Origin: a bacterium
GTDB taxonomy: Bacteria > Patescibacteriota > Patescibacteriia > Patescibacteriales > XYC2-FULL-47-12
Direction: 5' to 3'
Assembly: GCA_030698385.1 (NCBI GenBank)
Contig: JAUYLZ010000033.1
Location: 9,905 to 73,904 of the forward strand
DNA length: 64,000 nucleotides
Shown here: piece by piece, positions 1,460 to 49,422 of the stretch
How the letters are laid out: each line of letters starts with the position of its first letter
How positions within the stretch are numbered: position 1 is the first letter of the stretch
Program-made: the position numbers and the translations under genes
The notes under the pieces: model-generated
The model's database searches: none
What the model was told of the DNA's origin: nothing
The model's input: only the letters and a program-made list of their open reading frames with translations

Positions 1460-3769
1460 ATGTATTATAAATTAGAAAAGTTAGTCCTGACGCCGACCTC
1501 AGGCAAGCCATCAAGCACGGCTGAAGTTTTCATCAGCAATCCGCAAATTGACCAAGAAGCAATTTTGGGCAAACTTTTTTTCGCCTGCGAAATTGAATCT
1601 GTAAAATCAGATGCTCTAAAAATCATTAACTTCTTCATCTCTGCTCTGCCCAATAATTATTACCAGAGCGAAAAAATTTCTCTGCGTGAAAAAATGGGCA
1701 AAATAAACATCGCTACTTTGTTTGAAAACTCCATTGCCAGAGTAAACGCTGAGTTTGAAAAATTCGCCAAAAAAGAACGCGTCAAAATTGATGGAAAAAA
1801 AGTAAACTTAGTCGCTGGCGTAATCACCAAAAGTGAACTAATCTATAGCACGGTTGGAAGTATGCGCGCTATGCTTATCCACACCGAAGGCAAAAGTGAA
1901 AATGCTGAATCTTTAATAACTGCCGGCGAAGCCAATAAAAAAATTTACAAAATTGCGGTAATTGAAGAAAATGAAACTAGAAAAAAAGTAGATTTCAGTA
2001 AAATTTTTTCCAACGTAACTGAAGGGAAAATACCGCTGGAAGGTTATTTCGTTTTTACCAACGATATTTTGCCTGAGTATATTAGCAATAAGCATTTGAG
2101 CAAAATTATCACCACGCTGCCGCTGCCAAGCGCGGTTGAACAAATCAAATCCCAACTTCACAAAATCAATAACTACGTCACTTTCGTTGGCATTATTATA
2201 AAAAACTCCAGCCAGCCGCAAATAAAACGCTCAATTCCAAAAATGCAACTCCATGTTACTGCCAATAACTCGCTTGAAGAAATGCAATCAACCGAAAACC
2301 GAACATCAAAATATCTTTCTCCTTTTGGCGCTATAAATAAAGACAGAATTATAAACTTTTTTAAAAAAAATACCATCGGCCTGCTAAAGTCAGGCGGTTA
2401 CCCGCGCGAAAACTCAACCATTAGAGACAAAATATTTTTAACCAGAAAAAGCCCTTTTCGAGTAATACTCAGATTTTCCAATTATCTAAAAAATCTGTTC
2501 TCGCTCATAATCAACATTTTTTTCTACCTTATACAAATATCTTTACACCCGGTCTTACTAATCCGAAAAATTTCCCTTTTAACAAAAATTATACTCTCAA
2601 AAATTTTAGGATTTTTTTCTTTTTTGTACTTCTGGTACAAAAAACTGTCGCCGATTAGCAAAACCTGGCTGGTAATCTTTGTAATCTGCGCGTCTTTATT
2701 TACCTACAATATCTACAGTATTACCGGCTCAAAAAATCAACAAATCAACGAAGTCAGCTATCAGGAAAAAGTACAAACTATTCAACAAAAACAAAATCAA
2801 ATTGAAGCCGCCCTGCTCTACAAAGATGAAGAAAAAGCAAAAGCGCTCATTGAAGAAACAGCCGGATTAATTACTGAATTGAATTCCTATGAAAAAATTG
2901 ATGGGCGTTTAATAGAAACACTGCTTAGCAAAAATGCCGAGCAGCTAAAAAAAATCAGCCATGTAATCACCATTGATCCTCAAGAACTAATAGATTTTTC
3001 TAATTTGGAAAAAAATTCTCAACCGCAAAGTATGGCGCTGGTTGACACAATAGTTATAGCCGCCAACCCAAAAACCGGCACTCTCTTTCAGTATAATATC
3101 AAAGATAAAACAGCCAGCAACTTTGCCCTGACAAAAAATATAAACTTTGGCGCTCAGCCTGACAGTGATGAAGCTATTTTTATCTCCGCTCAAGGCGGTG
3201 TCAGAGTAGATAAAACCGGCATTATCCAGACCATTGATGAAAAAATCATAGACAGCCTTAATGAAATAAATGATATTGCCTATTTTAATAGCCGGCTATA
3301 CGTACTATCTGCGGCGAATAATAATATTTTGCGGTTTGCAAAAAATTTCGATACCTACGAAGAATGGGTAAAAGAAAATATAGATCTTAGCAATGCCGCC
3401 AGTGTCGCGATTGATGGCTATATCTATGTATTGAAAAATAATGGCGAAGTATTGAAATTTCTCTCCGGCTATACAAATAAATTTGAATTAAGTAAAATTA
3501 ATCCGCCGCTAACCAGCCCGACAAAAATTAAATTGACCGGTGACAGTGAAGCAGGCCAAATTTATATTCTTGAACCAAGCGCCAATCGAATTGCTGTATT
3601 TAGCAAGGAAGGAAAATTCATAACTCAATATCAGCTAGAAAATCTAACTGATTTAAAAGATTTTTTAGTCATCAAAAATAATGACGCGAAAAGCGTTAAC
3701 GCCAAAGATAAAATTCTGTTGCTGAGCGGTTCTAAAATTTACGAAATTGAAACTAGCGCTATTAAATAA
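1460..3769 (+). CDS. membrane signalling protein: N-terminal degenerate PP2C/SpoIIE-like domain, central TM segments, C-terminal beta-propeller-like repeats
   Basis: 769 aa. N-terminus has PP2C-like motif order (NLVAGVITKSELIYSTVGSMRAMLIH ~ vanvGDSRaylvr; GYFVFTNDIL ~ llLcSDGLwd; TFVGIII ~ DNiTvvvv). The canonical Asp residues are partly replaced. Hydrophobic block at aa ~330-420. C-terminus has repeated YVL/IYVL/IYIL strands. Confidence 0.55.
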   Translation: MYYKLEKLVLTPTSGKPSSTAEVFISNPQIDQEAILGKLFFACEIESVKSDALKIINFFISALPNNYYQSEKISLREKMGKINIATLFENSIARVNAEFEKFAKKERVKIDGKKVNLVAGVITKSELIYSTVGSMRAMLIHTEGKSENAESLITAGEANKKIYKIAVIEENETRKKVDFSKIFSNVTEGKIPLEGYFVFTNDILPEYISNKHLSKIITTLPLPSAVEQIKSQLHKINNYVTFVGIIIKNSSQPQIKRSIPKMQLHVTANNSLEEMQSTENRTSKYLSPFGAINKDRIINFFKKNTIGLLKSGGYPRENSTIRDKIFLTRKSPFRVILRFSNYLKNLFSLIINIFFYLIQISLHPVLLIRKISLLTKIILSKILGFFSFLYFWYKKLSPISKTWLVIFVICASLFTYNIYSITGSKNQQINEVSYQEKVQTIQQKQNQIEAALLYKDEEKAKALIEETAGLITELNSYEKIDGRLIETLLSKNAEQLKKISHVITIDPQELIDFSNLEKNSQPQSMALVDTIVIAANPKTGTLFQYNIKDKTASNFALTKNINFGAQPDSDEAIFISAQGGVRVDKTGIIQTIDEKIIDSLNEINDIAYFNSRLYVLSAANNNILRFAKNFDTYEEWVKENIDLSNAASVAIDGYIYVLKNNGEVLKFLSGYTNKFELSKINPPLTSPTKIKLTGDSEAGQIYILEPSANRIAVFSKEGKFITQYQLENLTDLKDFLVIKNNDAKSVNAKDKILLLSGSKIYEIETSAIK

Positions 3770-3908: not shown

Positions 3909-4379
3909 TTACTTCAAAGTAGCTTGTCCGCCGGCGCCATCAATTTTTTTCTTCATCTCTTCAGCTTCTTCCTTTTTCACAGCCGTTTTGATAACTTTTG
4001 GCGCGCCATCAACCAAGTCTTTGGACTCTTTCAAGCCAAGTCCGGTGATTTCTTTCACTACTTTAATTACAGCGATTTTATTTTCGCCAACGCCAGTGAG
4101 TTCTACATCAAACTCTGATTTTTCCTCAACTGCCGCCTCACCGCCGCCGGCGCCCGGCATCGCGCCCATCATCATTGCTGGCGCGGAGGCGGAAACTCCA
4201 AATTTTTCCTCCAGGACTTTGACTAATTCAGACAAATCCAAAACTGACATTTTTTCGATTTCAGACACAATGGACTGAAACTTTTCCGGAACTTCAACTT
4301 TTTTTTCTTCTTTTGTTTCCGCAGTTGGAGCAACCTCAACTTTTCCCTCTGCGGCATTAGTTGTATTTTCTTCTGCCAT
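3909..4379 (-). CDS. rplL: 50S ribosomal protein L7/L12
   Basis: 156 aa. N-terminal dimerisation helix, Ala/Gly-rich hinge ([15 protein letters not shown]), and C-terminal domain [31 protein letters not shown]...KKIDGAGG typical of L12. Confidence 0.95.
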
Positions 4380-4961: not shown

Positions 4962-5054
4962 AATTTTGTTAAATTACAAGTTCCAAATAACAAATATCAA
5001 AAAAATTATAAATTTAAAATTTTAATATTTAGAACCTATAATAATATAAAATAA

Positions 5055-5190
5055 AAAAATCTCCGATAAAAACCGCAGATATTAGGATAATTAATTCTGA
5101 AATTTGCAATTTGCATTCAAAAATTAATACTTTTCCTCGACGAGATGTTTAACGCGAATTGCGCCTCGTTGTCTGCGGCTTGCCCCGTAA
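5055..5190 (-). promoter_or_regulatory. possible rplJ (L10) leader structure
   Basis: GC-enriched island inside an AT-rich ~400 bp 5' UTR. Outer inverted repeat ccgcaga/tctgcgg encloses inner hairpins (cgacgag...ctcgttg). Its position matches known L10 autoregulatory leaders. Confidence 0.25.
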
Positions 5191-5378
5191 AATTTAATTA
5201 TTTAGGGGATATTCAGTTATTATAGACATAATAGCATACCTTTAATTTTTGTCAAATGCATTTTTTTGTCAAAATACCACTGCTTACATATTTTATGTTA
5301 ATAACTATTTTTGGTGTAAAAATTTACTTTAATGTTAGCACCTTGACAAAAAAAATAAAAAAATGGCAAAGCAATTTT

Positions 5379-6112: not shown

Positions 6113-6817
6113 TTAATAAGTACTGCTAATTACCGTACCATTGCACTTATTATTTTTAAATAAATTATCCAGATTCCCCAACTTTTTCCCATTCATTATC
6201 ACAACTTTTAGTTTCAACTTTTCAGCCAATTTTGAAGCAATCGGATCAAAAGGCTTGCTCATGCCCGGCGTCCACTTATCCCCCACTATTTTTCTAAAAT
6301 CAGGCCAGTTAATTTTTTCAATTTTTTTCGCATCTTTAAACTTCTTGGGGTCTTTAGTATAAACATAATCAATATTGGATAAATTTATTACTTTATTAAC
6401 GCCATAAGCATCCGCCAACCTCACTGCCACATAATCGGTTGACCAGCCCGGTTTCCAGCCGCCAGCCACAATAATTTTTTCCTTAAACTTAATTTTTTTG
6501 TCAGCATGCCTGATAATTTCCGGGTGCGACCAGTCATAAAAAATCGTACGTACCAAATGCGCGTTCAGGCGTGAAGAATGAATCCCCAGCCAGTCGCGGT
6601 CCTCGCTTTTGATAGCTAGCACTTTTTGCGCCGCTTGCGCGTACTGGCGCGCGGTTACCCCGCCGCCGGCAACAATAATAAACTTCTTGCCTTTTTTTAT
6701 CTGTTTGACAATGGTTGCTCTGAATTTTTTTAAATATTGCCAGTCGATTCCTGAGTGAGGCACAATGAGCGAACCGCCCAATGAAACTACATACATTTGA
6801 CTATTAACATTTGACAT
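6113..6817 (-). CDS. pyrH: amino-acid-kinase family protein, UMP kinase-like (archaeal-type PyrH)
   Basis: 234 aa. VVSLGGSLI ... FIIVAGGGVTARQY matches UMPK/amino acid kinase N-terminal and glycine-loop motifs. Length fits the short archaeal-type UMPK. Confidence 0.6.
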   Translation of the reverse strand: MSNVNSQMYVVSLGGSLIVPHSGIDWQYLKKFRATIVKQIKKGKKFIIVAGGGVTARQYAQAAQKVLAIKSEDRDWLGIHSSRLNAHLVRTIFYDWSHPEIIRHADKKIKFKEKIIVAGGWKPGWSTDYVAVRLADAYGVNKVINLSNIDYVYTKDPKKFKDAKKIEKINWPDFRKIVGDKWTPGMSKPFDPIASKLAEKLKLKVVIMNGKKLGNLDNLFKNNKCNGTVISSTY

Positions 6818-7247
6818 TTAACTATAATTTATTATTTAAAAGTTTTTTTCTAAATGCTGTAAGTTGATTACCTAGTGCTTCAGCTTTTAATAGAAAGTCG
6901 TTATGAGTATTTAGAGAGATATATTTGCTATCAAGAGCGATATCTAAACATGCTACTACTTCATTTAATGATGTATGCGCTAAATTAAGAAAATGAGCAA
7001 AGTCCTTATCAGTTCCTCTATCAGAACCTTCTGCAATATTTAATATTATTGAATACAATGCTCTCCACATCTGCGAAGATAAGCAATACTTTTCATTAGA
7101 TGGAAAATCTTGATAGATTATTAATTTAACTTCACAACAAAACATTCTCGCATCTTTATAAACTTGAAAATTTCTAAATCGAAATTTTTTTATAAACACA
7201 GAGCTAGTCATAAAAAAAGTTAAATGTTAATAGTCAATAGTCAATTG
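6794..7247 (-). mobile_element. TIR-bounded mini-cassette A carrying a four-helix-bundle gene (IVS-like element)
   Basis: ~29-bp imperfect inverted repeats (24/29 match): catttgactattaacatttgacatttaac (6794-6822) versus the reverse complement of gttaaatgttaatagtcaatagtcaattg (7219-7247). They abut the ORF on both sides. The element sits exactly between the mltG stop (7249) and the pyrH-like start (6817, inside the left repeat). Confidence 0.4.
6822..7211 (-). CDS. four helix bundle protein (TIGR02436-like; '23S rRNA intervening sequence protein' family)
   Basis: 129 aa, helical, with the family hallmark AEG motif (NIAEGSDRGTDKDFAHFLNLAHTSLNEV). Confidence 0.75.
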   Translation of the reverse strand: MTSSVFIKKFRFRNFQVYKDARMFCCEVKLIIYQDFPSNEKYCLSSQMWRALYSIILNIAEGSDRGTDKDFAHFLNLAHTSLNEVVACLDIALDSKYISLNTHNDFLLKAEALGNQLTAFRKKLLNNKL

Positions 7248-36497: not shown

Positions 36498-36568
36498 GCG
36501 AGATTAGTACAGTGGTAGTATATCGGCTTCCCAAGCCGAGGACGCCAGTTCGATCCTGGTATCTCGCT
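36498..36568 (+). tRNA. tRNA-Gly (anticodon CCC)
   Basis: Hand-folded cloverleaf: acceptor GCGAGAT/ATCTCGC, D-arm GTAC-AGTGGTA-GTAT, anticodon arm TCGGC-TTCCCAA-GCCGA, T-arm GCCAG-TTCGATC-CTGGT, discriminator T. No encoded CCA. Confidence 0.75.
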
Positions 36569-36699
36569 CAGTCCGGCGATGGCGGGCAGGCAAGGTTGAG
36601 GCACGAGTCCGATTCCCGTTACCCGCTCTGGTAATTTCAGATTTCAAATTTCAGAATGAAAAATATGTTATTTTGAAATTTGAAATTTACGTTTAAAAC

Positions 36700-36775
36700 G
36701 CCGAAATAGCTCAGCTGGTAGAGCAATGCTTTCGTAAAGCAGAGGTCGGGAGTTCGAATCTCCCTTTCGGCTCCA
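36700..36775 (+). tRNA. tRNA-Thr (anticodon CGU)
   Basis: Acceptor GCCGAAA/TTTCGGC, D-arm GCTC-AGCTGGTA-GAGC, anticodon loop TTCGTAA, T-arm GGGAG-TTCGAAT-CTCCC, CCA encoded. Confidence 0.85.
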
Positions 36776-39683: not shown

Positions 39684-39700
39684 TGTGTTGTATTAATAAT

Positions 39701-40230
39701 TCAAATCTACAAAATAATGCAAATCTACAAATTTATGCAAATATTGCAAAAAATAATTTATGCAAATTACGCCTTTTTATAGTATAAACCGTTTAGAATC
39801 CTCTTAGGAACTAAACGCGGTTGCCTAAAATTTACTAAAATTCCTAAATGTAAATTTAAAGTTACTAAATATCTCTTTACCTGATAATAATCTTCTTTAG
39901 TTAAGGAATCTCTGGCTTTGAATTCAACTATTATCTTATTTTCAATTATAAAATCTACTATACACCTAACATCTCCTTTCCCATATTGATGGTCGTTGAA
40001 GCGATATTCTCTGATATACTTAAATTTCTTTTGTTGCAATAGCTTTTCAAAATAATCTCCGTATTGTTTTTCGTTACGAAAGCGACCTAAATCCTTATGC
40101 GCCTTAAAGAATAAACCAACTATTTCATAAGATAATTCTTTGTGTATGCATTTATCTTCTGCCATAATATAATTTGCATATGAAATTTTGTAGTATTTGC
40201 ATGTTAATTTGTAGTATTTGCATTATATTT
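39701..40230 (-). mobile_element. TIR-bounded mini-cassette B carrying a GxxExxY gene
   Basis: Left flank 39701-39776 and the reverse complement of right flank 40171-40230 share ~60 bp of imperfect inverted repeats. These are built from atgcaaat and ctacaaa units (each side has ttgtagtatttgcat / atgcaaatctacaaa twice). The right repeat overlaps the last ~9 codons of recJ. Confidence 0.35.
39767..40165 (-). CDS. GxxExxY protein (TIGR04256-like, PD-(D/E)XK fold)
   Basis: 132 aa. LSYEIVGLFFKAHKDLGRFRNEKQYGDYF ... GDVRCIVDFIIENKIIVEFKA ... YQVKRYLVTLNLHLGILVNFRQPRL matches the GxxExxY family consensus. Confidence 0.75.
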   Translation of the reverse strand: MAEDKCIHKELSYEIVGLFFKAHKDLGRFRNEKQYGDYFEKLLQQKKFKYIREYRFNDHQYGKGDVRCIVDFIIENKIIVEFKARDSLTKEDYYQVKRYLVTLNLHLGILVNFRQPRLVPKRILNGLYYKKA

Positions 40231-42003
40231 TAAATCAATAACTTTCAACTGCACCTCCCGCCGGCCATTCCATTCATTAATATCAAGATAGTAAACTAAA
40301 TCAATAAACTGGCCGATTTTTAAATTCAGCCATTCCGCCGGCGCGCTAAACGCTATGGCGTTAAAAAGTTTTTTGTCCTCTGAGCACAATCTCAGTTTCA
40401 AATGCTGATTGTCGTTGCCCATCGTCTGCATATGCGCGACCAACAACTTTTTGGTTATAAACTTGGGCTGTTGGTTGCCCATGCCAAACGGCCTCAGCTT
40501 CCGCAGAGCGTTGTACAAATCCTCGTCGATATTTTTAAAATCAACTTCCAGATCAATTTCCAGAGTCGGTTCAAGTTCCGTGTTTTTCAATTTTTTCGCG
40601 GCGATTTTTTGGCATTTTTTCAAAAAAGGCAAAAGAGAATCTTTGTCCTTGACCGTAAAACCGCAGGCTTGTTTGTGTCCGCCGTAGGTTGATAAAAATT
40701 CAGCGCACTCCTCAAGCATTGCCGTAATGTCAAACTCCGGGATGCTCCGGCCGGAACCGGTCGCTTCCCCGTCTTTATCAGTAATCGCCAAAGATGGCCG
40801 GTAGTACTTTTCGGTTAGTTTGCCAGCCACAAGCCCCATCACGCCAGCCGACCACGGAGCCGTTTGATCAGTTTCTTTTTCCTGAAGACGGACAAGCGCT
40901 TGTCCGTTTTCTTTCGCGCTAACACTTAATAACTTTGGCCAAACGGCGAATAAAATTTTGTCCTCTTGCTTTATTTCCGCATCCGCCTGTTCAAAAATAT
41001 CCAGCGTAATCTCCTGGCGTTCTTTGTTTTTGCCGTCCAGTTCTTTGGCTACTTTTACAGCTTCAGCTTTATCCTCGGTAACCAAGAGTTGGTAGGCGTT
41101 ATTAGCGTGATCCAACCGGCCCATAGCATTTATTCTTGGCGCCAGCTGAAACCCAACCTGCCAAGTATCAATTTCTTTGCTATTGCCGTTTTTGTCAGTA
41201 TCGGACTGTGAAACTTTGATTAATTGTTTGAGGCCAACGCGCTGTGTTTTATTTAAAACAACCAAGCCGTATTTTACCAAAACGCGGTTCTCGTCAAGCA
41301 GTGGCATCAGATCGGCAATAGTGCCAATGGCGACTAAATCCAATAGCCATTTTTCAAAAACCTCGGCTGCTTTTTTCTGGCTTTTTTTTAATAATGCTTG
41401 CGCGAGCTTAAACGCCACGCCGCAACCGGCCAAACCGTCAAAAGGATAGGTCTCACCCGGCACCTTTGGATTGATAATGAGGCAATCGGGTAGCTCATCA
41501 GGGGCTTCATGGTGATCGGTAACGATGATATCTGTGCCTAAATTTTTACCGAAATTAATCTCGCCGACGCTGCGGATTCCCGTGTCAACGGTAATGACCA
41601 GTTTAGTTCCATTTTCAGCTAAGTATTTTAGCGCTTCATTATTGAGGCCGTATCCTTCGCTTTTGCGGTCCGGAATATACACGCTGATTAAATTTTTGCC
41701 AGGCTGCAAAAATTCCAATGTCTTGAAAAGCAGCGCGGTGGAGGTAACGCCGTCAGCGTCATAGTCGCCATAGACGGTGATTTTTTCATTTTGTTCAATA
41801 GCCTTAAAAATCCTCTCAACCACTGCTGGCATGTTTTTGAAAAGAAATGGATCGTGCAACCGCTCGGTATAGTTCGGGTTTAAAAAATTATTCACCTGAT
41901 CAGGCGTAACGCCGCGCCGGCTCAACAACCGCAAAACCACCGGATTTATATCTTTTACATCTAAAATTAAAATTTTTTTATTTTCAACCAACCGCCACTT
42001 CAT
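40204..42003 (-). CDS. recJ: single-stranded-DNA-specific exonuclease RecJ
   Basis: 599 aa. DHH motifs (VYGDYDADGVTSTALL, DHH at ...VTDHHEAPD), DHHA1 (GGHKQACGF), and C-terminal OB region. Confidence 0.9.
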   Translation of the reverse strand: MKWRLVENKKILILDVKDINPVVLRLLSRRGVTPDQVNNFLNPNYTERLHDPFLFKNMPAVVERIFKAIEQNEKITVYGDYDADGVTSTALLFKTLEFLQPGKNLISVYIPDRKSEGYGLNNEALKYLAENGTKLVITVDTGIRSVGEINFGKNLGTDIIVTDHHEAPDELPDCLIINPKVPGETYPFDGLAGCGVAFKLAQALLKKSQKKAAEVFEKWLLDLVAIGTIADLMPLLDENRVLVKYGLVVLNKTQRVGLKQLIKVSQSDTDKNGNSKEIDTWQVGFQLAPRINAMGRLDHANNAYQLLVTEDKAEAVKVAKELDGKNKERQEITLDIFEQADAEIKQEDKILFAVWPKLLSVSAKENGQALVRLQEKETDQTAPWSAGVMGLVAGKLTEKYYRPSLAITDKDGEATGSGRSIPEFDITAMLEECAEFLSTYGGHKQACGFTVKDKDSLLPFLKKCQKIAAKKLKNTELEPTLEIDLEVDFKNIDEDLYNALRKLRPFGMGNQQPKFITKKLLVAHMQTMGNDNQHLKLRLCSEDKKLFNAIAFSAPAEWLNLKIGQFIDLVYYLDINEWNGRREVQLKVIDLKYNANTTN

Positions 42004-42535: not shown

Positions 42536-42573
42536 AAAGCCCTCTGCAAATTTAATGAGGGCTTTTTATTTTT
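42536..42573 (+). terminator. intrinsic terminator
   Basis: aaagccctc-tgcaaatttaat-gagggcttt followed by ttatttttaa. Confidence 0.6.
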
Positions 42574-42574
42574 A

Positions 42575-42674
42575 ATACAATAACATTGGCAAAACGGTAA
42601 AAGCAAGCATTGCCAAAATCATAATAATCATAACCGCACGAGTTATTATTTTTTTAATAGTTTTCTTCTTCATA
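42575..42674 (-). CDS. possible small hydrophobic peptide (33 aa)
   Basis: MKKKTIKKIITRAVMIIMILAMLAFTVLPMLLY. Starts where the murJ start codon would lie relative to the duplicated cassette flank. No RBS check possible, could be spurious. Confidence 0.2.
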
Positions 42675-42894
42675 TAATCCTACTAATTACGAATTAACTA
42701 CAAATTTACCAATCGCTTCTACTGAAGCTTTGATAAATTTACTAAACGCATAAATTTTACTCCATTAGATCTAATTATATATGGCGCTTGTCTTTTAAAT
42801 ATTAATTCTTTTATTTTAAAATTATTAGCGACAGCTCTTTCGTAATATTTCTCTTGGAATTATTAGTATATTCTAAATAATTAGTAATTAGTAG
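42670..42894 (-). pseudogene. decayed copy of the GxxExxY cassette (two internal deletions), TIRs intact
   Basis: 42670-42760 is ~97% identical to 47765-47849 and 42762-42856 is ~93% identical to 48015-48110. Terminal repeats ctactaattacgaatt (42670-42685) and aattagtaattagtag (42879-42894) are preserved. ~165 bp and ~105 bp of the ORF are missing. Confidence 0.6.
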
Positions 42895-42910
42895 GAGTTA
42901 GAGTATCAGG

Positions 42911-44695
42911 CTATCGTTTAAGTACGCTTAAGAAGGCCTCGGGAGGAATCTCCACGCCGCCCTTGCCCAAAGAGGCCATCTTCTTTTTGCCTTTCTTTTG
43001 TTTTTCCAATAACTTACGCTTGCGCGAAACATCGCCGCCGTAAAGTTTGGCGGTAACGTCTTTGCGCAAAGCCGAAATACGTTCCGCCGCGATGATTGAC
43101 CCGCCGATAGCGGCCTGGATTTTGAGCATGAACTGCTGGCGCGGCAAGGTATTTTTCAATGAATTAACAATTTCTTTGCCGCGCTTTTGCGCTTCGTCTT
43201 TGTAAACAATTGTGGACAGCGCCTCAACCGCTTCTTCAGCGACTAAAATATCCATCCGCACAACTTCGGCCGCGCGATAATCCAGATACTCATAATTAAT
43301 CGAGGCGTAACCGCTAGTCGCGCTTTTTATTTTATCGTAAAAATCAGTTAAAATTGTAGACATTGGCATTTCGTAATGCAGAACTGCCCGGTCATCATCA
43401 ATATATTCGGTCGTTCTATAAATGCCTCTTTTTTCTTGGACTAAATTCATAATTGAACCCATGTAGATCTTTGGCGTTATCACATCAAGCGTTACCCACG
43501 GCTCCTTAATCTCGGCAATCTGCGATGGATCAGGCAGGTCATAAGCCGAACGAATAATGGAATCTTTGCCGTCAGTTTTTTTTAACTGATAAGCAACCGA
43601 AGGAGTGGTTACAATTAATTCAAGATCAAATTCTCGGTGCAGACGCTCCTGAAAAATTTCCAAATGCAAAAGCCCCAAAAAACCGCAACGAAAGCCAAAA
43701 CCAAGCGCTTGCGACTGCTCGGGCTCATATATCAAAGCTGAATCAGTCAATTTCAGCTTGCCAATCGCCTCGCGCAGATCATCATACTCATTCCCTTCTT
43801 TGGCAAAAACTCCGGCAAAAACCATTGGCTTCACTACCTTGTAACCGGGCAGAGCTTTTACTTCTCCGGCCGCGGAAGTTTTCTTGGTAATAGTGTCGCC
43901 AACCTTGCACTCCTCAACCGACTTGAGTCCAGTAACGATATAGCCGATTTCTCCGGTGTCTAAACTTCCGGTCGAAAAATAGTCCGGCTTGAAAAATCCG
44001 ACATCCAAAGCCTCGCTTTCAGCCTCCGTTTCAATTAACTTTATTTTATCGCCTTTTTTGATACTGCCATCAACAACGCGCGCATAAGCAACAACCCCTT
44101 TGTACTCATCATAAACCGAATCAAAAATCATGGCGCGCAAGTTATTTTCTTTTTCCCCTCTCGGCGGCTGGACGCGATCAATGACTGCCTGCAAAATTTG
44201 TTCCACTCCCGCTCCGGTTTTTCCGGAGGCTTCAATAACGTCTTCAGCTTTGCAGCCGATCAACTTCACGATACTTGCTTTGGTGCCGCTGACATCTGCC
44301 GCTGGCAGATCAATTTTGTTCACCACCGGAATTATTTCCAAATTCTGTTCAAGCGCCAAATATAAGTTTGCCAAAGTCTGCGCCTGAATGCCTTGCGTTG
44401 AGTCAACTAACAAAATCGCCCCTTCAACAGCGGCGAGCGAACGTGATACTTCATAGGAAAAATCAACATGTCCGGGCGTGTCAATTAAATTCAAATGATA
44501 ACCCAAATAATTCATATTTACCGGCGCGAGCTTAATCGTAATGCCCCGCTCCCGTTCCAGCTCCATTTTGTCCAAAAATTGAGCTTTCATATTTCGTTTG
44601 TCAACGGTGTGGGTAATTTCAAGCATGCGGTCAGCGAGCGTTGACTTACCGTGGTCGATATGAGCGATAATACAGAAATTACGAATGTTGTTCAT
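42911..44695 (-). CDS. lepA: translation elongation factor 4 (LepA)
   Basis: 594 aa. NFCIIAHIDHGKSTLADR G1 motif, DTPGHVDF, NKIDL, and the LepA-specific C-terminal domain. Confidence 0.95.
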   Translation of the reverse strand: MNNIRNFCIIAHIDHGKSTLADRMLEITHTVDKRNMKAQFLDKMELERERGITIKLAPVNMNYLGYHLNLIDTPGHVDFSYEVSRSLAAVEGAILLVDSTQGIQAQTLANLYLALEQNLEIIPVVNKIDLPAADVSGTKASIVKLIGCKAEDVIEASGKTGAGVEQILQAVIDRVQPPRGEKENNLRAMIFDSVYDEYKGVVAYARVVDGSIKKGDKIKLIETEAESEALDVGFFKPDYFSTGSLDTGEIGYIVTGLKSVEECKVGDTITKKTSAAGEVKALPGYKVVKPMVFAGVFAKEGNEYDDLREAIGKLKLTDSALIYEPEQSQALGFGFRCGFLGLLHLEIFQERLHREFDLELIVTTPSVAYQLKKTDGKDSIIRSAYDLPDPSQIAEIKEPWVTLDVITPKIYMGSIMNLVQEKRGIYRTTEYIDDDRAVLHYEMPMSTILTDFYDKIKSATSGYASINYEYLDYRAAEVVRMDILVAEEAVEALSTIVYKDEAQKRGKEIVNSLKNTLPRQQFMLKIQAAIGGSIIAAERISALRKDVTAKLYGGDVSRKRKLLEKQKKGKKKMASLGKGGVEIPPEAFLSVLKR

Positions 44696-46087: not shown

Positions 46088-47758
46088 CTAAATTCCTCTC
46101 GCTTCGCTGACATCGTCTGTTTCAATTTTTTCACGCTTAAACTTTGAACGAATGCTACGGATGAAATTCAATAATTCTTCAGACTTTAACAGCCAGCAAA
46201 CTATTATAAAAATTATTATGCCAAAACTACCGGCTAAAAATCCTTGCGTCAACACACCCCAGAACTTCGTCATATTAACCAATGGTTCAATTAAAAACTT
46301 AACCGCTTGAATGCTAATGCCGGCGGCAATGCTGGCCAAAGAAATTTTTAATGTTGACATCAGAATGCGCACTTCATCAAGATTGCCAAACTCTGCCTTG
46401 AGCAATATCCACAACAAAGCGAAATTTATAATCATACTGATAGAAAATGCCAGCGCCAAACCGGCAACGCCCAGAGGCTGACAGATATTTGCCGCTCCGC
46501 AAGCTATGATGCTTGGTAAATACAAACTTAAACCCAAATTAACCACTACCGCGAATAGCCCGACATAAAAAGGCGTTTTGCTGTTTTTTTGCACATAAAA
46601 CATACGAACAAGCAATGGAATAATTGCCTGCGCGAACAGACTTAAGCAAAAATAAGTCAAGGTATTAATTGTCAAAATCGTATCCTGCCAGTCAAACGCG
46701 CCCGCGCCAAGAATGACACGAATGATTTGCGCGCGCAAAGTCAGTATCAAAACCGTAGCTGGTAAAATGAAAAAAATGATTTGACGCAATACTTTGGAAA
46801 AATTCTTAATCAGCACGCCCCGGTCATCAGCCAAAGCCGACAAAGTTGGAAAAGCGGCAATCGCGAACGAGATGCCGAAGATGCCGACCGGAAATGATTG
46901 TAAATTATTAGCGAAATTAAATACTGCCAAACTGCCGGCCGCCAGTGTTGAAGCAATTATAGTTATCACAACTAAATTAACCTGCATCACCGCCAGACTC
47001 AACGTGCGCGGAACCATCATTATGGCAATCTGACGAATATACTTATTGCGCCAATTAAAAACCGGCTGCCAGCGCCAGCCCAATGAAAAAACGGTCGGCA
47101 CTTGAATCAGTAAATGCATCAGCGCGCCAAAAACAACTCCGTAAGCCAAACCATACACTCCCCAAATCGGCGTAAAGTATAGAGCGCCAATGATAATCCC
47201 TATGTTGTAAATAATCGGCGCCAGCGAATACACGAAGAATCGCTTAAAAGACTGCAACACTCCGCCAAAGACCGAACTTAAGCCCAGAAACAGCGGCGAC
47301 AAAAACATTATCCGAGTCAGGTTCACGGTGATCAATTGAGCATCAGCGTCAAACCCCGGCGCCAACAATTTCGTAAGTGGTTCGGCAAATATTACCAAAA
47401 CCAGTGACGTAACAATTAATAAACTGCCAAGAATGTTTAAAGCAATGTTGGCCACTAGCCAGGCTTCGTTATTTTCTTTGTCAGTAATTTTTTTAATTAT
47501 TGACCGGTGATTAATCAAAGCCGCAAAAACCGGAATGAATCCGGCTGAAAGCGCGCCCAATACCAAAAGATTATAAATAAGATCCGGAACGCGAAAGGCC
47601 GCGTAGTACATATCAAGAGTCGAACCGGCGCCGAATTCGGAGGCCAAAATTCTATCGCGAAATATACCTAAAAAACGGCTGGCTAGCGATGCCGCCGCGA
47701 CAATAACCGCCGCAACCGTTATAGAGTTTATTTTTGAAGTAAATAACTTGCTTATCAT
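46088..47758 (-). CDS. murJ: lipid II flippase MurJ (MviN)
   Basis: 556 aa, 14 TM. N-terminal SRFLGIFRDRILASEFGAGSTLDMYYAAFRVPDLIYNLL MurJ motif. Confidence 0.85.
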   Translation of the reverse strand: MISKLFTSKINSITVAAVIVAAASLASRFLGIFRDRILASEFGAGSTLDMYYAAFRVPDLIYNLLVLGALSAGFIPVFAALINHRSIIKKITDKENNEAWLVANIALNILGSLLIVTSLVLVIFAEPLTKLLAPGFDADAQLITVNLTRIMFLSPLFLGLSSVFGGVLQSFKRFFVYSLAPIIYNIGIIIGALYFTPIWGVYGLAYGVVFGALMHLLIQVPTVFSLGWRWQPVFNWRNKYIRQIAIMMVPRTLSLAVMQVNLVVITIIASTLAAGSLAVFNFANNLQSFPVGIFGISFAIAAFPTLSALADDRGVLIKNFSKVLRQIIFFILPATVLILTLRAQIIRVILGAGAFDWQDTILTINTLTYFCLSLFAQAIIPLLVRMFYVQKNSKTPFYVGLFAVVVNLGLSLYLPSIIACGAANICQPLGVAGLALAFSISMIINFALLWILLKAEFGNLDEVRILMSTLKISLASIAAGISIQAVKFLIEPLVNMTKFWGVLTQGFLAGSFGIIIFIIVCWLLKSEELLNFIRSIRSKFKREKIETDDVSEARGI

Positions 47759-47764
47759 CTAATC

Positions 47765-48252
47765 CTACTAATTACGAATTAACTACAAATTTACCAATCG
47801 CTTCTACAGAAACTTTGATAAATTTACTAAACGCATAAATTTTACTCCATGTGGCGTAAAGTTTGCTAAAATAGCAAGCTTTAAATTAGTGGCCTTAAGA
47901 TACGCATTTACCTGATCTATGTTTTGCTTATTGAAGTAATTACCTTTTTTTAGTTCAAGTATCACCTTGCCGGCAACCAAAAAATCAAGATAATACCTGC
48001 CAATAATTTTACCATTAGATCTGATTATGTATGGTACTTGTCTTTTAAATATTAATTCTTTTACTTTAAAATTATTAGCGACAGCTCTTTCGTAATATTT
48101 CTCTTGGTATCCATATCCCAATTCGTTAAAGACAGAATATAATACGCCAACAATTTTATAACTCAAATCTGGATAGACCAAATCCTCCCTAATAACTCGA
48201 CGAGAATACATAGATAGTTATTAGTATATTCGAAATAATTAGTAATTAGTAG
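47765..48252 (-). mobile_element. TIR-bounded mini-cassette D carrying an intact GxxExxY gene
   Basis: 16-bp terminal inverted repeats ctactaattacgaatt (47765-47780) and aattagtaattagtag (48237-48252; 15/16 match). The right repeat abuts the rseP stop codon (48253) and the left repeat starts 6 bp after the murJ start codon (47758). Confidence 0.45.
47804..48211 (-). CDS. GxxExxY protein (TIGR04256-like, PD-(D/E)XK fold)
   Basis: 135 aa. LSYKIVGVLYSVFNELGYGYQEKYYE ... GRYYLDFLVAGKVILELKK ... VNAYLKATNLKLAILANF family consensus. Confidence 0.8.
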   Translation of the reverse strand: MYSRRVIREDLVYPDLSYKIVGVLYSVFNELGYGYQEKYYERAVANNFKVKELIFKRQVPYIIRSNGKIIGRYYLDFLVAGKVILELKKGNYFNKQNIDQVNAYLKATNLKLAILANFTPHGVKFMRLVNLSKFL

Positions 48253-49422
48253 TTAGCTGAAGAACTTAGTAATGTCGCGATAAGTAACTAAAATGACGAG
48301 AAATATGAGCAAGGCAAAACCGGCGTTATGAATAAAAGCTTCGACTTTTTCCGGCACGGCCCGGCCCCGAATTTTTTCAATGATTAAAAATAAAACCCGC
48401 CCGCCGTCCAAAGCCGGAAACGGCAAATAGTTTAGTATTGCCAAGTTGACAGATAATATCGCCGTGAACTGCAATAAATAGACAAATCCCAACTGAGCCA
48501 TCTGACCAGTAATGGTTGCAATGCCGACCGGTCCGGACAAACTCTGGCTAACCCCGACGCCGGTAAAAATATCTCTAAACAACCCATAAAAAGCGGCGAT
48601 GATAAACCAGATCAAAAATACCGTGGATTTAATTCCCTCCCAAATCGCTCGGTACCAAGGAAAACTTACTAAACCGGTCTCCGCGATGGCAACGCCAATG
48701 CCAACCTCATCGCTCTCTCCCAAAACCTTGGGTGTTATCGCCAAATCAAACTCTTCACGGCCGCGTCTTAATTGATAATCAAGCTCTTGCCCCGCCTTGT
48801 CAGCTAAAAAAGCCTGTAACTGTGTATAGTTGCTAAACTGCTGGTTATTAATGCTCAAAATCACATCGCCAAACTGAACGCCAGCATTGGCCGCGGCTGA
48901 ATCTGGCAGTACCTGCATTATCTGAATGTTACGATCGCGCACTATCGCGGCCGGACTGACGCCATCCAAGTCCTGAGGCAGTCCCAACATATAACCAAGT
49001 GAAATAAAGAGAGCGGCAATGATTATATTCATAGTTACTCCGGCTGACAAAATAATACAGCGCTTCCAGATTTTTTGGTGACCAAAGCTATCGGTTTCGT
49101 CTTTGCTGTCTCCTTGTTCTCCTTTTATTTTTACAAAACCGCCCAATGGCAGCCAATTTATGGAATACACCGTGCCGTCAGCGTCATCAACTTCTCTGCT
49201 GCCCCAAACCACCTTCCACTTTCTTGATTTCTTTGGCGCCTCACTTTCATCAGCGCCGGCTTTATTAATCGGACGATAAATACCAATCGCGCGCGGCGGA
49301 AAGCCCCAGCCAAACTCCGGACAACTAACGCCGAATTTTCGCGCGGTCCAAAAATGGCCTATTTCATGAGCGAAGACAAGAATGGATAAAATTACGATAA
49401 ATATAATAATAGTGGTAAACAT
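48253..49422 (-). CDS. rseP: RIP metalloprotease RseP (site-2 protease, M50) with PDZ domain
   Basis: 389 aa. HEIGHFWTARKFGV HExxH in TM1, PDZ (AANAGVQFGDVILSINNQQF), LDG motif ALDGGR. Confidence 0.85.
   Translation of the reverse strand: MFTTIIIFIVILSILVFAHEIGHFWTARKFGVSCPEFGWGFPPRAIGIYRPINKAGADESEAPKKSRKWKVVWGSREVDDADGTVYSINWLPLGGFVKIKGEQGDSKDETDSFGHQKIWKRCIILSAGVTMNIIIAALFISLGYMLGLPQDLDGVSPAAIVRDRNIQIMQVLPDSAAANAGVQFGDVILSINNQQFSNYTQLQAFLADKAGQELDYQLRRGREEFDLAITPKVLGESDEVGIGVAIAETGLVSFPWYRAIWEGIKSTVFLIWFIIAAFYGLFRDIFTGVGVSQSLSGPVGIATITGQMAQLGFVYLLQFTAILSVNLAILNYLPFPALDGGRVLFLIIEKIRGRAVPEKVEAFIHNAGFALLIFLVILVTYRDITKFFS

Follow-up and report, generated by a model that had tools for sequence, protein, structure and literature searches.

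A hairpin-bounded GxxExxY cassette between rseP and murJ in a Patescibacteria genome, and related insertions at operon junctions

How does a short gene of the GxxExxY family, enclosed by inverted repeats, come to fill the whole gap between rseP and murJ, and how could the operon that carries these genes put up with it? The question is raised by a stretch of 64,000 nucleotides (nt) from contig JAUYLZ010000033.1 of a Patescibacteriota genome, which is called the window here. All coordinates are positions in this 64-kb window, and L- and P-numbers designate relatives or loci that were fetched for comparison. We think that the insert, named cassette A in the following, probably belongs to a large family of selfish, hairpin-bounded elements, resembling both the intervening sequences (IVSs) of ribosomal RNA (rRNA) and the REPtrons, which would sit at the junctions of co-transcribed genes in the candidate phyla radiation (CPR, or Patescibacteria), be transcribed with the host operon and probably be present in other phyla too. 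The selfish character of the cassette and its IVS-like architecture are well supported. What can be observed directly is the anatomy, the duplication, the series of decayed forms, the bias in orientation, the flush fit between the neighbouring genes and the conservation of the catalytic residues.

Anatomy of the cassette and its protein

Cassette A lies on the minus strand together with both of its neighbours, rseP upstream (a RIP metalloprotease gene; 48253-49422, TIGR00054, 4e-74) and murJ downstream (the lipid II flippase gene; 46088-47758, TIGR01695, 4e-96). It occupies the entire rseP-murJ gap, and the initial annotation of the locus was right in stating that its orientation matches that of the host operon, all three genes being read from the same strand. 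The open reading frame (ORF), at 47804-48211, encodes a protein of 135 amino acids (aa) that matches PF13366 (PDDEXK_3, 9.4e-27) and TIGR04256 (4.9e-27), and its ATG has no Shine-Dalgarno (SD) sequence upstream. The GC content of the cassette is 30%, compared with 43-46% in the flanking genes.

The ORF is enclosed by two arms, given here in the sense direction of the minus strand. The 5' arm (48212-48255) contains the core inverted repeat at 48236-48252, CTACTAATTACTAATTA, and is composed of the units TACTAAT, TACTAAT, TCGAAT and TACTAAT. It adjoins the rseP stop codon (48253-48255), and the pairing continues through the stop. The 3' arm (47759-47803) has its core, TAATTCGTAATTAGTAG, at 47765-47781, and its outer end, GTAGGATTAG, provides the AGGA SD sequence directly before the murJ ATG (47756-47758). 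The terminal repeats first described are indeed there: ctactaattacgaatt at 47765-47780 agrees in 15/16 positions with the reverse complement of aattagtaattagtag at 48237-48252, and a repeat search extends the arms to 17 nt, 16/17 complementary (47765-47781 against 48236-48252). The distances originally given to the neighbouring genes stand in part. In the sense direction, the left repeat is 6 nt upstream of the murJ ATG ('6 bp after' it is right in plus-strand coordinates), but the right repeat is 0 nt, not 1, from the rseP stop. Likewise, the extent of 488 bp captured a discrete cassette set flush between rseP and murJ, but not its full boundaries. In a gapped alignment, complementarity spans both entire spacers (41 and 45 nt), with mismatches, and the last rseP codon and the stop codon pair with the murJ SD/AUG region, both in this alignment and in the RNA folds. 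Cassette A extends, by this gapped complementarity, over approximately 47759-48255, slightly more than first described. The repeat is not due to chance: with at most two mismatches allowed, four matches to the 16-mer arm are present in the window, where 0.16 would be expected, and 0/100 shuffles gave as many.

Predicted RNA folds give the same picture of the termini, which pair in both the minimum-free-energy and the centroid structures of cassette A, of the gene-less copy B described below and of the loci L099, L090 and L001, with fold z-scores ranging from -2.8 to -7.2. On the sense strand of cassette A, no terminator-like hairpin was found and only one weak (9/12) promoter-like match. No ribozyme, intron or known RNA was recognised by Rfam in or near the cassettes, and the window contains no rRNA.

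The protein is a confident member of its family, with 94.1 bits for PF13366 (cut-off 22) and 94.6 bits for TIGR04256 (cut-off 35). It carries the motif G34-x-x-E37-x-x-Y40 and the catalytic residues D76, E86 and K88. In 41 aligned sequences, E37, D76, E86 and K88 are invariant and the motif residues are invariant or nearly so, a degree of conservation which indicates that the nuclease catalytic residues are under selection. The AlphaFold2 model (predicted local distance difference test score, pLDDT, of 92.3) has a compact PD-(D/E)XK fold of the restriction-endonuclease-like alpha/beta type. Its nearest neighbours in the PDB, as found with Foldseek, are Cas4 SSO0001, lambda exonuclease, Hjc resolvase and tRNA-splicing endonucleases (E 1e-4 to 1e-2, template-modelling score, TM, of ~0.45-0.54). 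Profile scores, catalytic residues and structural comparison all bear out the fold that had been assigned from the sequence. Pfam and NCBIfam returned only PDDEXK_3 and GxxExxY for cassette A, with no DDE, HUH or serine/tyrosine recombinase, and neither a defence nor a phage assignment came from PADLOC or PHROGs. GxxExxY/PDDEXK_3 proteins form a very large family of unknown function, often with many paralogues per genome. The protein of cassette A is deposited as 'MAG: GxxExxY protein [bacterium]', and its exact sequence had no matching contig in the collection searched. In an independent Logan assembly of the same organism (L089, SRR13727534), the contig stops 175 nt into cassette A, which fits a repeated sequence that breaks short-read assemblies.

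Copies, relatives and junction states

A search of the window for further copies of the 16-bp terminal repeat, suggested along with the initial annotation, gave one extra pair, and this pair bounds a gene-less, internally deleted derivative of cassette A, copy B (42670-42900, minus strand, a 225-bp element). Copy B is found 5 kb from cassette A, with the lepA stop (42911-42913) on one side and the ATG (42672-42674) of a 33-codon ORF on the other. Its 16-mer matches are at 42680-42695 (plus strand) and 42879-42894 (minus strand), giving the inverted pair 42680-42696/42878-42894, which can be extended to ~24 nt. Three segments of copy B are 97%, 93% and 97% identical to cassette A, and they are separated by two deletions, corresponding to 47851-48004 and 48108-48217 of cassette A, with which most of the ORF has gone. 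In translation, residues 35-67 and 121-134 can still be recognised as remnants, and even the single mismatch between the arms of cassette A has been retained. The same repeat pair and three homologous segments at a second junction indicate that cassette A was copied there and decayed later.

The 33-codon ORF (42573-42674, minus strand), a putative gene at most, would encode a hydrophobic peptide (MKKKTIKKIITRAVMIIMILAMLAFTVLPMLLY). It starts directly after copy B, whose AGGA is its SD sequence, and a hairpin followed by a T-run adjoins it at ~42540-42575.

The rseP-murJ junction itself can be compared across relatives, although the comparison of occupied, gene-less and empty states spans deeply diverged lineages, not strains. 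The nearest RseP relatives are only ~62% identical to RseP of the window, and four roughly equidistant lineages (RseP identity 61-66%) retain the rseP-murJ synteny. The junction in the window holds the full cassette with its ORF. At the same place, L090, L091 and L092 have a 270-bp ORF-less element with the 5' end TAATCCTACAAA, and the 3' arm of this type is 28/34 identical to the arm in the window, with the same TAGTAATTAGTAG ending before murJ. L099 and L100 have a gene-less hairpin of 125 nt, ACTCCTACAAATTACAAAT...CTTCGTAGGAGT, with a fold z-score of -4.6. In L101, the junction is empty, the rseP TAA being separated from the murJ ATG by 8 nt. An empty site of the kind that the initial annotation proposed to look for does exist, at the depth of divergence just stated. 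Together with copy B and with the location of the closest relative in an unrelated context, this empty junction and the gene-less ones uphold the selfish, mobile behaviour proposed for the cassette at the outset.

The interior of the L090 element (4138-4270 of that locus) contains GC-rich hairpins (CCCGCCCGAC... / ...GGCGGGCGGG), unlike the AT-rich cassette, with a fold z-score of -7.2; they may represent a nested second element or a structured RNA. Two more distant loci found through RseP (52% and 40% identity) could not be used as empty sites, as rseP is followed there by proS, not murJ. In one distant rseP locus (L007), an extra gene of 400 bp showed no inverted repeat.

The closest relative of the protein, at locus P0002, is 69% identical and lies between unrelated genes; the inverted repeat around it, 36 nt long and perfect, has CTACTAATTACGAAT in common with the arms of cassette A. 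Falkowbacteria, Kuenenbacteria and Uhrbacteria are among the Patescibacteria from which the relatives at 50-69% identity come. A survey of the family was made on 80 metagenomic loci plus the P0002 locus, taking as a measure an ungapped flank-complementarity (inverted-repeat) score of at least 12. Of 66 non-redundant GxxExxY genes, 82% reached this score; among 219 other ORFs of these loci, taken as controls, it was 7.8% (p = 3e-20 for the flank scores in a Mann-Whitney test). The top-scoring controls were either PF05635 genes or host genes adjoining a cassette, the high-scoring hosts being rpsG, rpsH, mreB, an M48 peptidase gene and a thioredoxin-reductase-like gene. The arms are arrays of one to four units of 7-8 nt with the consensus (C)TAC[G/A/T]AAT. 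At the variable position of the unit, the two arms agree in 78% of cases against 33% expected, and the spacers between units vary freely and are often non-complementary. The outer ends of the arms are typically CC.../...GG.

The fit of these cassettes between their neighbours is very tight. In most of them the 5' arm begins 0-5 nt past the upstream stop, and the end of the 3' arm is a median of 5 nt from the downstream ATG. The stop of the cassette ORF abuts the 3' arm (0 nt) in 21/50 cassettes, and the gaps that separate the ORF from the neighbouring genes have medians of 44 and 45 nt. Of 45 cassettes, 23 have an SD-like motif ahead of the downstream gene (within the arm in 19), versus 68/367 control genes, a rough figure because the control start codons are longest-ORF calls; before the ORF of the cassette itself, such a motif is present in only 6/67. 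The gene upstream is co-oriented with the cassette in 56/59 cases and the gene downstream in 47/59, for a control value of 185/240 adjacent pairs.

Hairpins without a gene but built from the same units are multi-copy in relatives such as L034, L027, L024, L099 and others. In L034, three near-identical ones with TACGAAT/TACAAAT units (467-519, 1284-1353 and 2477-2529) fill consecutive junctions of a ribosomal-protein operon, and the GxxExxY gene of the same locus (2998-3390) has kept only a 5' arm, ~82% identical (by eye) to the 5' half of the hairpins. Outside the CPR, a GxxExxY gene on a Treponema plasmid is flanked by a 16-nt inverted repeat. On a Gemmatirosa plasmid (L098, 1911-1983), in a high-GC, non-CPR genome, a 32-nt, 91% complementary hairpin with three CGCGGAT units lies just downstream of a GxxExxY gene, which suggests that GC-rich versions of the unit arrays exist. 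No comparable flanking repeat was found for the homologues on a Fusobacteria plasmid and a Persicobacter plasmid. No rRNA signature was detected in the 95 locus sequences examined, and no homologue of the cassette A protein among the INPHARED phages. In viral contigs, the arm sequences gave single matches at about chance level, with no GxxExxY or IVP gene nearby.

Two other cassettes in the window complete the picture, so that four of one architecture (A, B, C and D) are present in 64 kb. Cassette C (39684-40235, minus strand), between recJ and rnhA, has TGCAAAT/CTACAAAT units in inverted arrays on both sides and contains a GxxExxY gene for a protein of 132 aa (39767-40165, minus strand; PF13366 2.8e-20), 30% identical to that of cassette A. 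Its 5' arm overlaps the final codons of recJ (stop at 40204-40206). The last six of them (NANTTN*) are supplied or overlapped by this arm, so that the insertion may have taken the place of RecJ's original C-terminus. Cassette D (6794-7247, minus strand) is located between mltG and a pyrH-like gene and has 29-nt inverted arms (7219-7247/6794-6822) of TTGACTA-type units. Its gene (6822-7211, minus strand) belongs not to PF13366 but to PF05635 (23S_rRNA_IVP, four-helix-bundle/Avd-like; 3.3e-28). The 5' arm begins 1 nt past the mltG stop, the ATG of the pyrH-like gene lies within the 3' arm, and this gene was the best-scoring ORF when all ORFs of the window were scored for flanking complementarity. 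Both cassette types also co-occur in L001, the genome with the closest homologue, where a PF05635 gene (2920-3291) lies within a 43-nt inverted repeat of CTAATT-type units (2863-3363), 700 bp upstream of the GxxExxY cassette.

Among the ordinary features of the window, unrelated to the cassettes, Rfam identified an L10_leader (54.7 bits) upstream of rplJ at 5044-5196 (minus strand), and tRNA-Gly(CCC) and tRNA-Thr(CGT) genes are found at 36498-36775.

The selfish-cassette reading and its rivals

Several steps can be proposed by which such a cassette would live within an operon. The common layout runs from the upstream stop through 0-5 nt, the 5' arm with its two to four tandem units, the SD-less ORF and the complementary 3' arm to the downstream ATG ~5 nt further on, and at its outer, G-rich end the 3' arm often serves at the same time as SD for the downstream gene. 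Co-orientation, the lack of a terminator-like hairpin and the presence of only one weak promoter-like match inside suggest that the cassette would be transcribed by read-through of the host operon. The arms would then pair in the RNA into a stem of 17 to 36 or more bp, so that the insert would be looped out and the upstream stop come to lie close to the SD and ATG downstream, and it is in this way that the host operon could tolerate the insertion. The stem might then be cleaved by RNase III, as happens in rRNA IVSs. Alternatively, ribosomes terminating at the base of the stem might melt it and free the downstream SD, thus preserving expression of the essential gene. The nuclease would serve the element's own spreading or maintenance, and most likely would recognise the heptamer arrays, as a DNA hairpin or duplex, in cognate gene-less hairpins, by analogy with REP-associated tyrosine transposases (RAYTs) and their repetitive extragenic palindromes (REPs), and with homing endonucleases and ORF-less introns. 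Hairpins that lack the ORF, and deleted versions like copy B, would be non-autonomous or decayed forms. We regard both the proposed RNA-processing and the proposed homing mechanism as plausible.

Some of the observations weigh against this reading. Selection on an RNA stem should yield an excess of G·U among the arm mismatches on the sense strand, and no such excess is seen (35 G·U versus 51 A·C, p = 0.1). At the constant positions of the units, 570/575 agree between the arms, which fits protein-DNA recognition at least equally well. As the sequence of the units is conserved, and not just their pairing, and there is no G·U bias, selection on an RNA stem is not favoured over recognition by a protein, and the sequences make recognition of the DNA by a protein at least as likely. 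At the flanks of A, B and ~50 relatives, moreover, we see neither a target-site duplication nor a conserved target; at best there might be a TA. About 18% of the homologues have no detectable arm pair (L034, for example, has a 5' arm only), and old inheritance by vertical descent, instead of repeated homing, could account for the elements found at rseP-murJ in three deeply diverged lineages. As for the enzyme, we know of no nuclease activity or substrate for any GxxExxY protein. A sequence search of the PDB with the cassette A protein gave nothing meaningful, and the function of the family is listed as unknown (PMC3424549).

Part of this evidence would suit a conventional DNA transposon with derivatives of the MITE kind (miniature transposable elements with inverted repeats), in which the arms would be heptamer binding sites, the GxxExxY protein the transposase or excision nuclease, and the RNA stem incidental. 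The unit sequence, unlike that of the spacers, is kept even where the proteins of the elements share only 50-69% identity, the arm mismatches lack a G·U bias, the ends of the deleted and non-autonomous copy B are intact, and the ORF-less derivatives are multi-copy, all as a transposon would have it. PD-(D/E)XK nucleases do take part in transposition, such as TnsA of Tn7, and Tn7 and Mu have several binding sites per end. We nevertheless consider a transposon unlikely, as target-site duplications are missing at A, B and 50 other cassettes, no DDE, HUH or serine/tyrosine recombinase gene lies alongside the cassette, and an orientation bias of 56/59 with a stop/start fit flush to the nucleotide would be unexpected unless later selection were very strong. 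To our knowledge, moreover, no PD-(D/E)XK protein of 135 aa acts as a lone transposase. The gene could also be a free-standing one of the homing-endonuclease type, which would invade gene-less hairpins, either host structures or independently selfish REP-like ones, by cutting the ORF-less allele and being copied during repair. That the same junction is known with the ORF, with an ORF-less hairpin and empty would agree with this, as would the exact fit of the ORF in the loop (a stop-to-arm gap of 0 nt in 21/50) and the resemblance of the ORF-less hairpins of L034 to the arms of the local cassette, and PD-(D/E)XK homing endonucleases such as I-Ssp6803I exist. But the ORF fragments in copy B mark it as a decayed full cassette rather than a hairpin that was never invaded, and the loops of the solo hairpins are short and dissimilar, with no obvious conserved homing site. 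We therefore hold such an origin to be quite improbable.

Still less probable, and in our opinion very unlikely, is a domesticated module of benefit to the host and vertically inherited, in which the hairpin would be a signal for processing, stability or translational coupling of the operon mRNA and the nuclease a cellular enzyme for repair, defence or a toxin-like function. It is true that the arms at the rseP-murJ junction (28/34 nt) are more conserved than the RseP protein (65%), that the catalytic residues are under purifying selection and that essential genes downstream take their SD from the 3' arm. However, the empty junction of L101, with its spacer of 8 nt, means that the module is dispensable there, and a decayed copy B lies in the same genome. 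The cassettes, of low GC, are found in many unrelated operons and are interchangeable with PF05635 cassettes of the same architecture, and beyond the weak similarity to Cas4 no known defence-system model was matched. The selfish cassette remains the reading that we prefer.

A broader proposal goes further than the selfish cassette and is put forward only tentatively, as a possibility to which we would give clearly less than even credit: PF13366 and PF05635 genes could both be cargo of one class of self-insulating 'operon intervening sequences', of which those in rRNA helices would be a special case that happened to be noticed first, spreading by means of the encoded nuclease that recognises its own heptamer arrays. 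Such hairpin-nested genes could insert between any pair of co-transcribed genes and would become harmless at the level of the RNA, where pairing of the arms would loop out or cut out the insert and the 3' arm would pass the ribosome to the gene downstream. Both gene families share a hairpin of heptamer arrays, fitted to the nucleotide between the stop and start codons of essential operons, and the so-called 23S rRNA IVS proteins of PF05635 are as unexplained as the GxxExxY family. If true, a single class would give a biological role to two very large families of 'function unknown' and would explain the origin of rRNA IVSs, a question open since 1990; their origin and mobility are still described as open (PMC4990558).

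The finding is more general than the window alone could show. It provides a concrete model, a self-insulating selfish cassette, in which the protein and its own TAC-N-AAT arrays would be the candidate nuclease and substrate. Such a model would explain why GxxExxY and PF05635 genes turn up 'inside' cas, ribosomal-protein and cell-envelope operons, where they may be mistaken for functional partners. It also matters for the annotation of the streamlined CPR genomes, in which the cassettes make up much of the scant intergenic DNA and assemblies break at them. In the literature that was covered, with most subscription journals outside its scope, no inverted-repeat-bounded GxxExxY cassettes at operon junctions were found.

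Comparison with known systems

Cassette A falls short of rRNA IVSs, REPtrons, MITEs and homing endonuclease genes in a defining feature of each, and for this reason we do not class it as a member of any of them. TIGR-Tas systems, which have longer repeat units and a Nop-domain protein, were set aside as a candidate on that description.

The IVSs of rRNA, known from Salmonella, Leptospira, Coxiella and others, some of which encode S23p (PF05635), are also small inserts with long-stem inverted repeats set flush with the host sequence. They too have an optional small ORF filling the loop, ORF-less variants and a sporadic distribution. The IVS of Coxiella has tandem heptamers beside its ORF and a lower GC content than its host, and it is excised by RNase III (PMC4990558). 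The IVS-type PF05635 gene of cassette D has the same flush architecture as the GxxExxY cassettes, and with the Coxiella heptamers it sustains the IVS-like construction that had been proposed for cassette A. It was also stated at the outset that 23S rRNA IVSs are a known source of GxxExxY proteins. This could not be confirmed, the documented IVS protein family being PF05635/S23p. In the main text and one supplementary file of a survey of rRNA insertions in the CPR, LAGLIDADG, GIY-YIG and 23S_rRNA_IVP are listed, and neither 'PDDEXK' nor 'PF13366' gave a match (PMC11270868). Besides, the host site of an IVS is an rRNA helix, whereas cassette A is flanked by rseP and murJ; S23p is a four-helix bundle, whereas cassette A encodes a PD-(D/E)XK protein of PF13366. 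RNase III excision has been demonstrated for IVSs and would apply to cassette A by analogy, and the 3' arm of the cassette also carries the SD of the downstream gene.

The combination of REP and RAYT, in REPtrons or TIRtrons (PMC3733652), likewise places a gene between inverted short repeats that also form many gene-less intergenic palindromes. These elements are sited between co-directional or convergent genes, near the upstream stop, their expression presumably depends on read-through, and the CTAC...GTAG ends of many cassette arms recall the GTAG-tagged REPs. Their enzyme, however, is a Y1/HUH transposase of the IS200 (IS200/IS605) type and not a PD-(D/E)XK nuclease, and their repeat is a single GC-rich palindrome, while the arms of the cassettes are arrays of 7-8-nt units. 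Moreover, the cassette fills the entire junction and provides the SD. With MITEs and small transposons bounded by terminal inverted repeats, the cassettes have in common these repeats, deleted non-autonomous copies such as copy B, multi-copy intergenic locations and folding into RNA hairpins. They differ from them in having neither a target-site duplication nor a recognised transposase, and in the strong constraint on their orientation and position.

Homing endonuclease genes in group I introns and in the rRNA insertions of the CPR (PMC11270868) are also selfish nuclease genes in a self-insulating element within an essential transcription unit, and ORF-containing, ORF-less and degenerate versions of them occupy one site across lineages. 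Nevertheless, the cassette has no intron ribozyme (no Rfam match), its protein is not of the LAGLIDADG, GIY-YIG or HNH type, and its target is not a conserved coding or rRNA sequence. Genes of the IVS family between the genes of protein operons have, on the other hand, been reported already: 23S_rRNA_IVP genes occur inside cas operons, for example between cmr3 and cmr2, and were read as a functional association with CRISPR-Cas, with no description of flanking inverted repeats or of a link to GxxExxY (PMC3936711). By analogy, the cassettes described here suggest that PF05635 genes in cas operons are selfish insertions rather than functionally linked to their neighbours.

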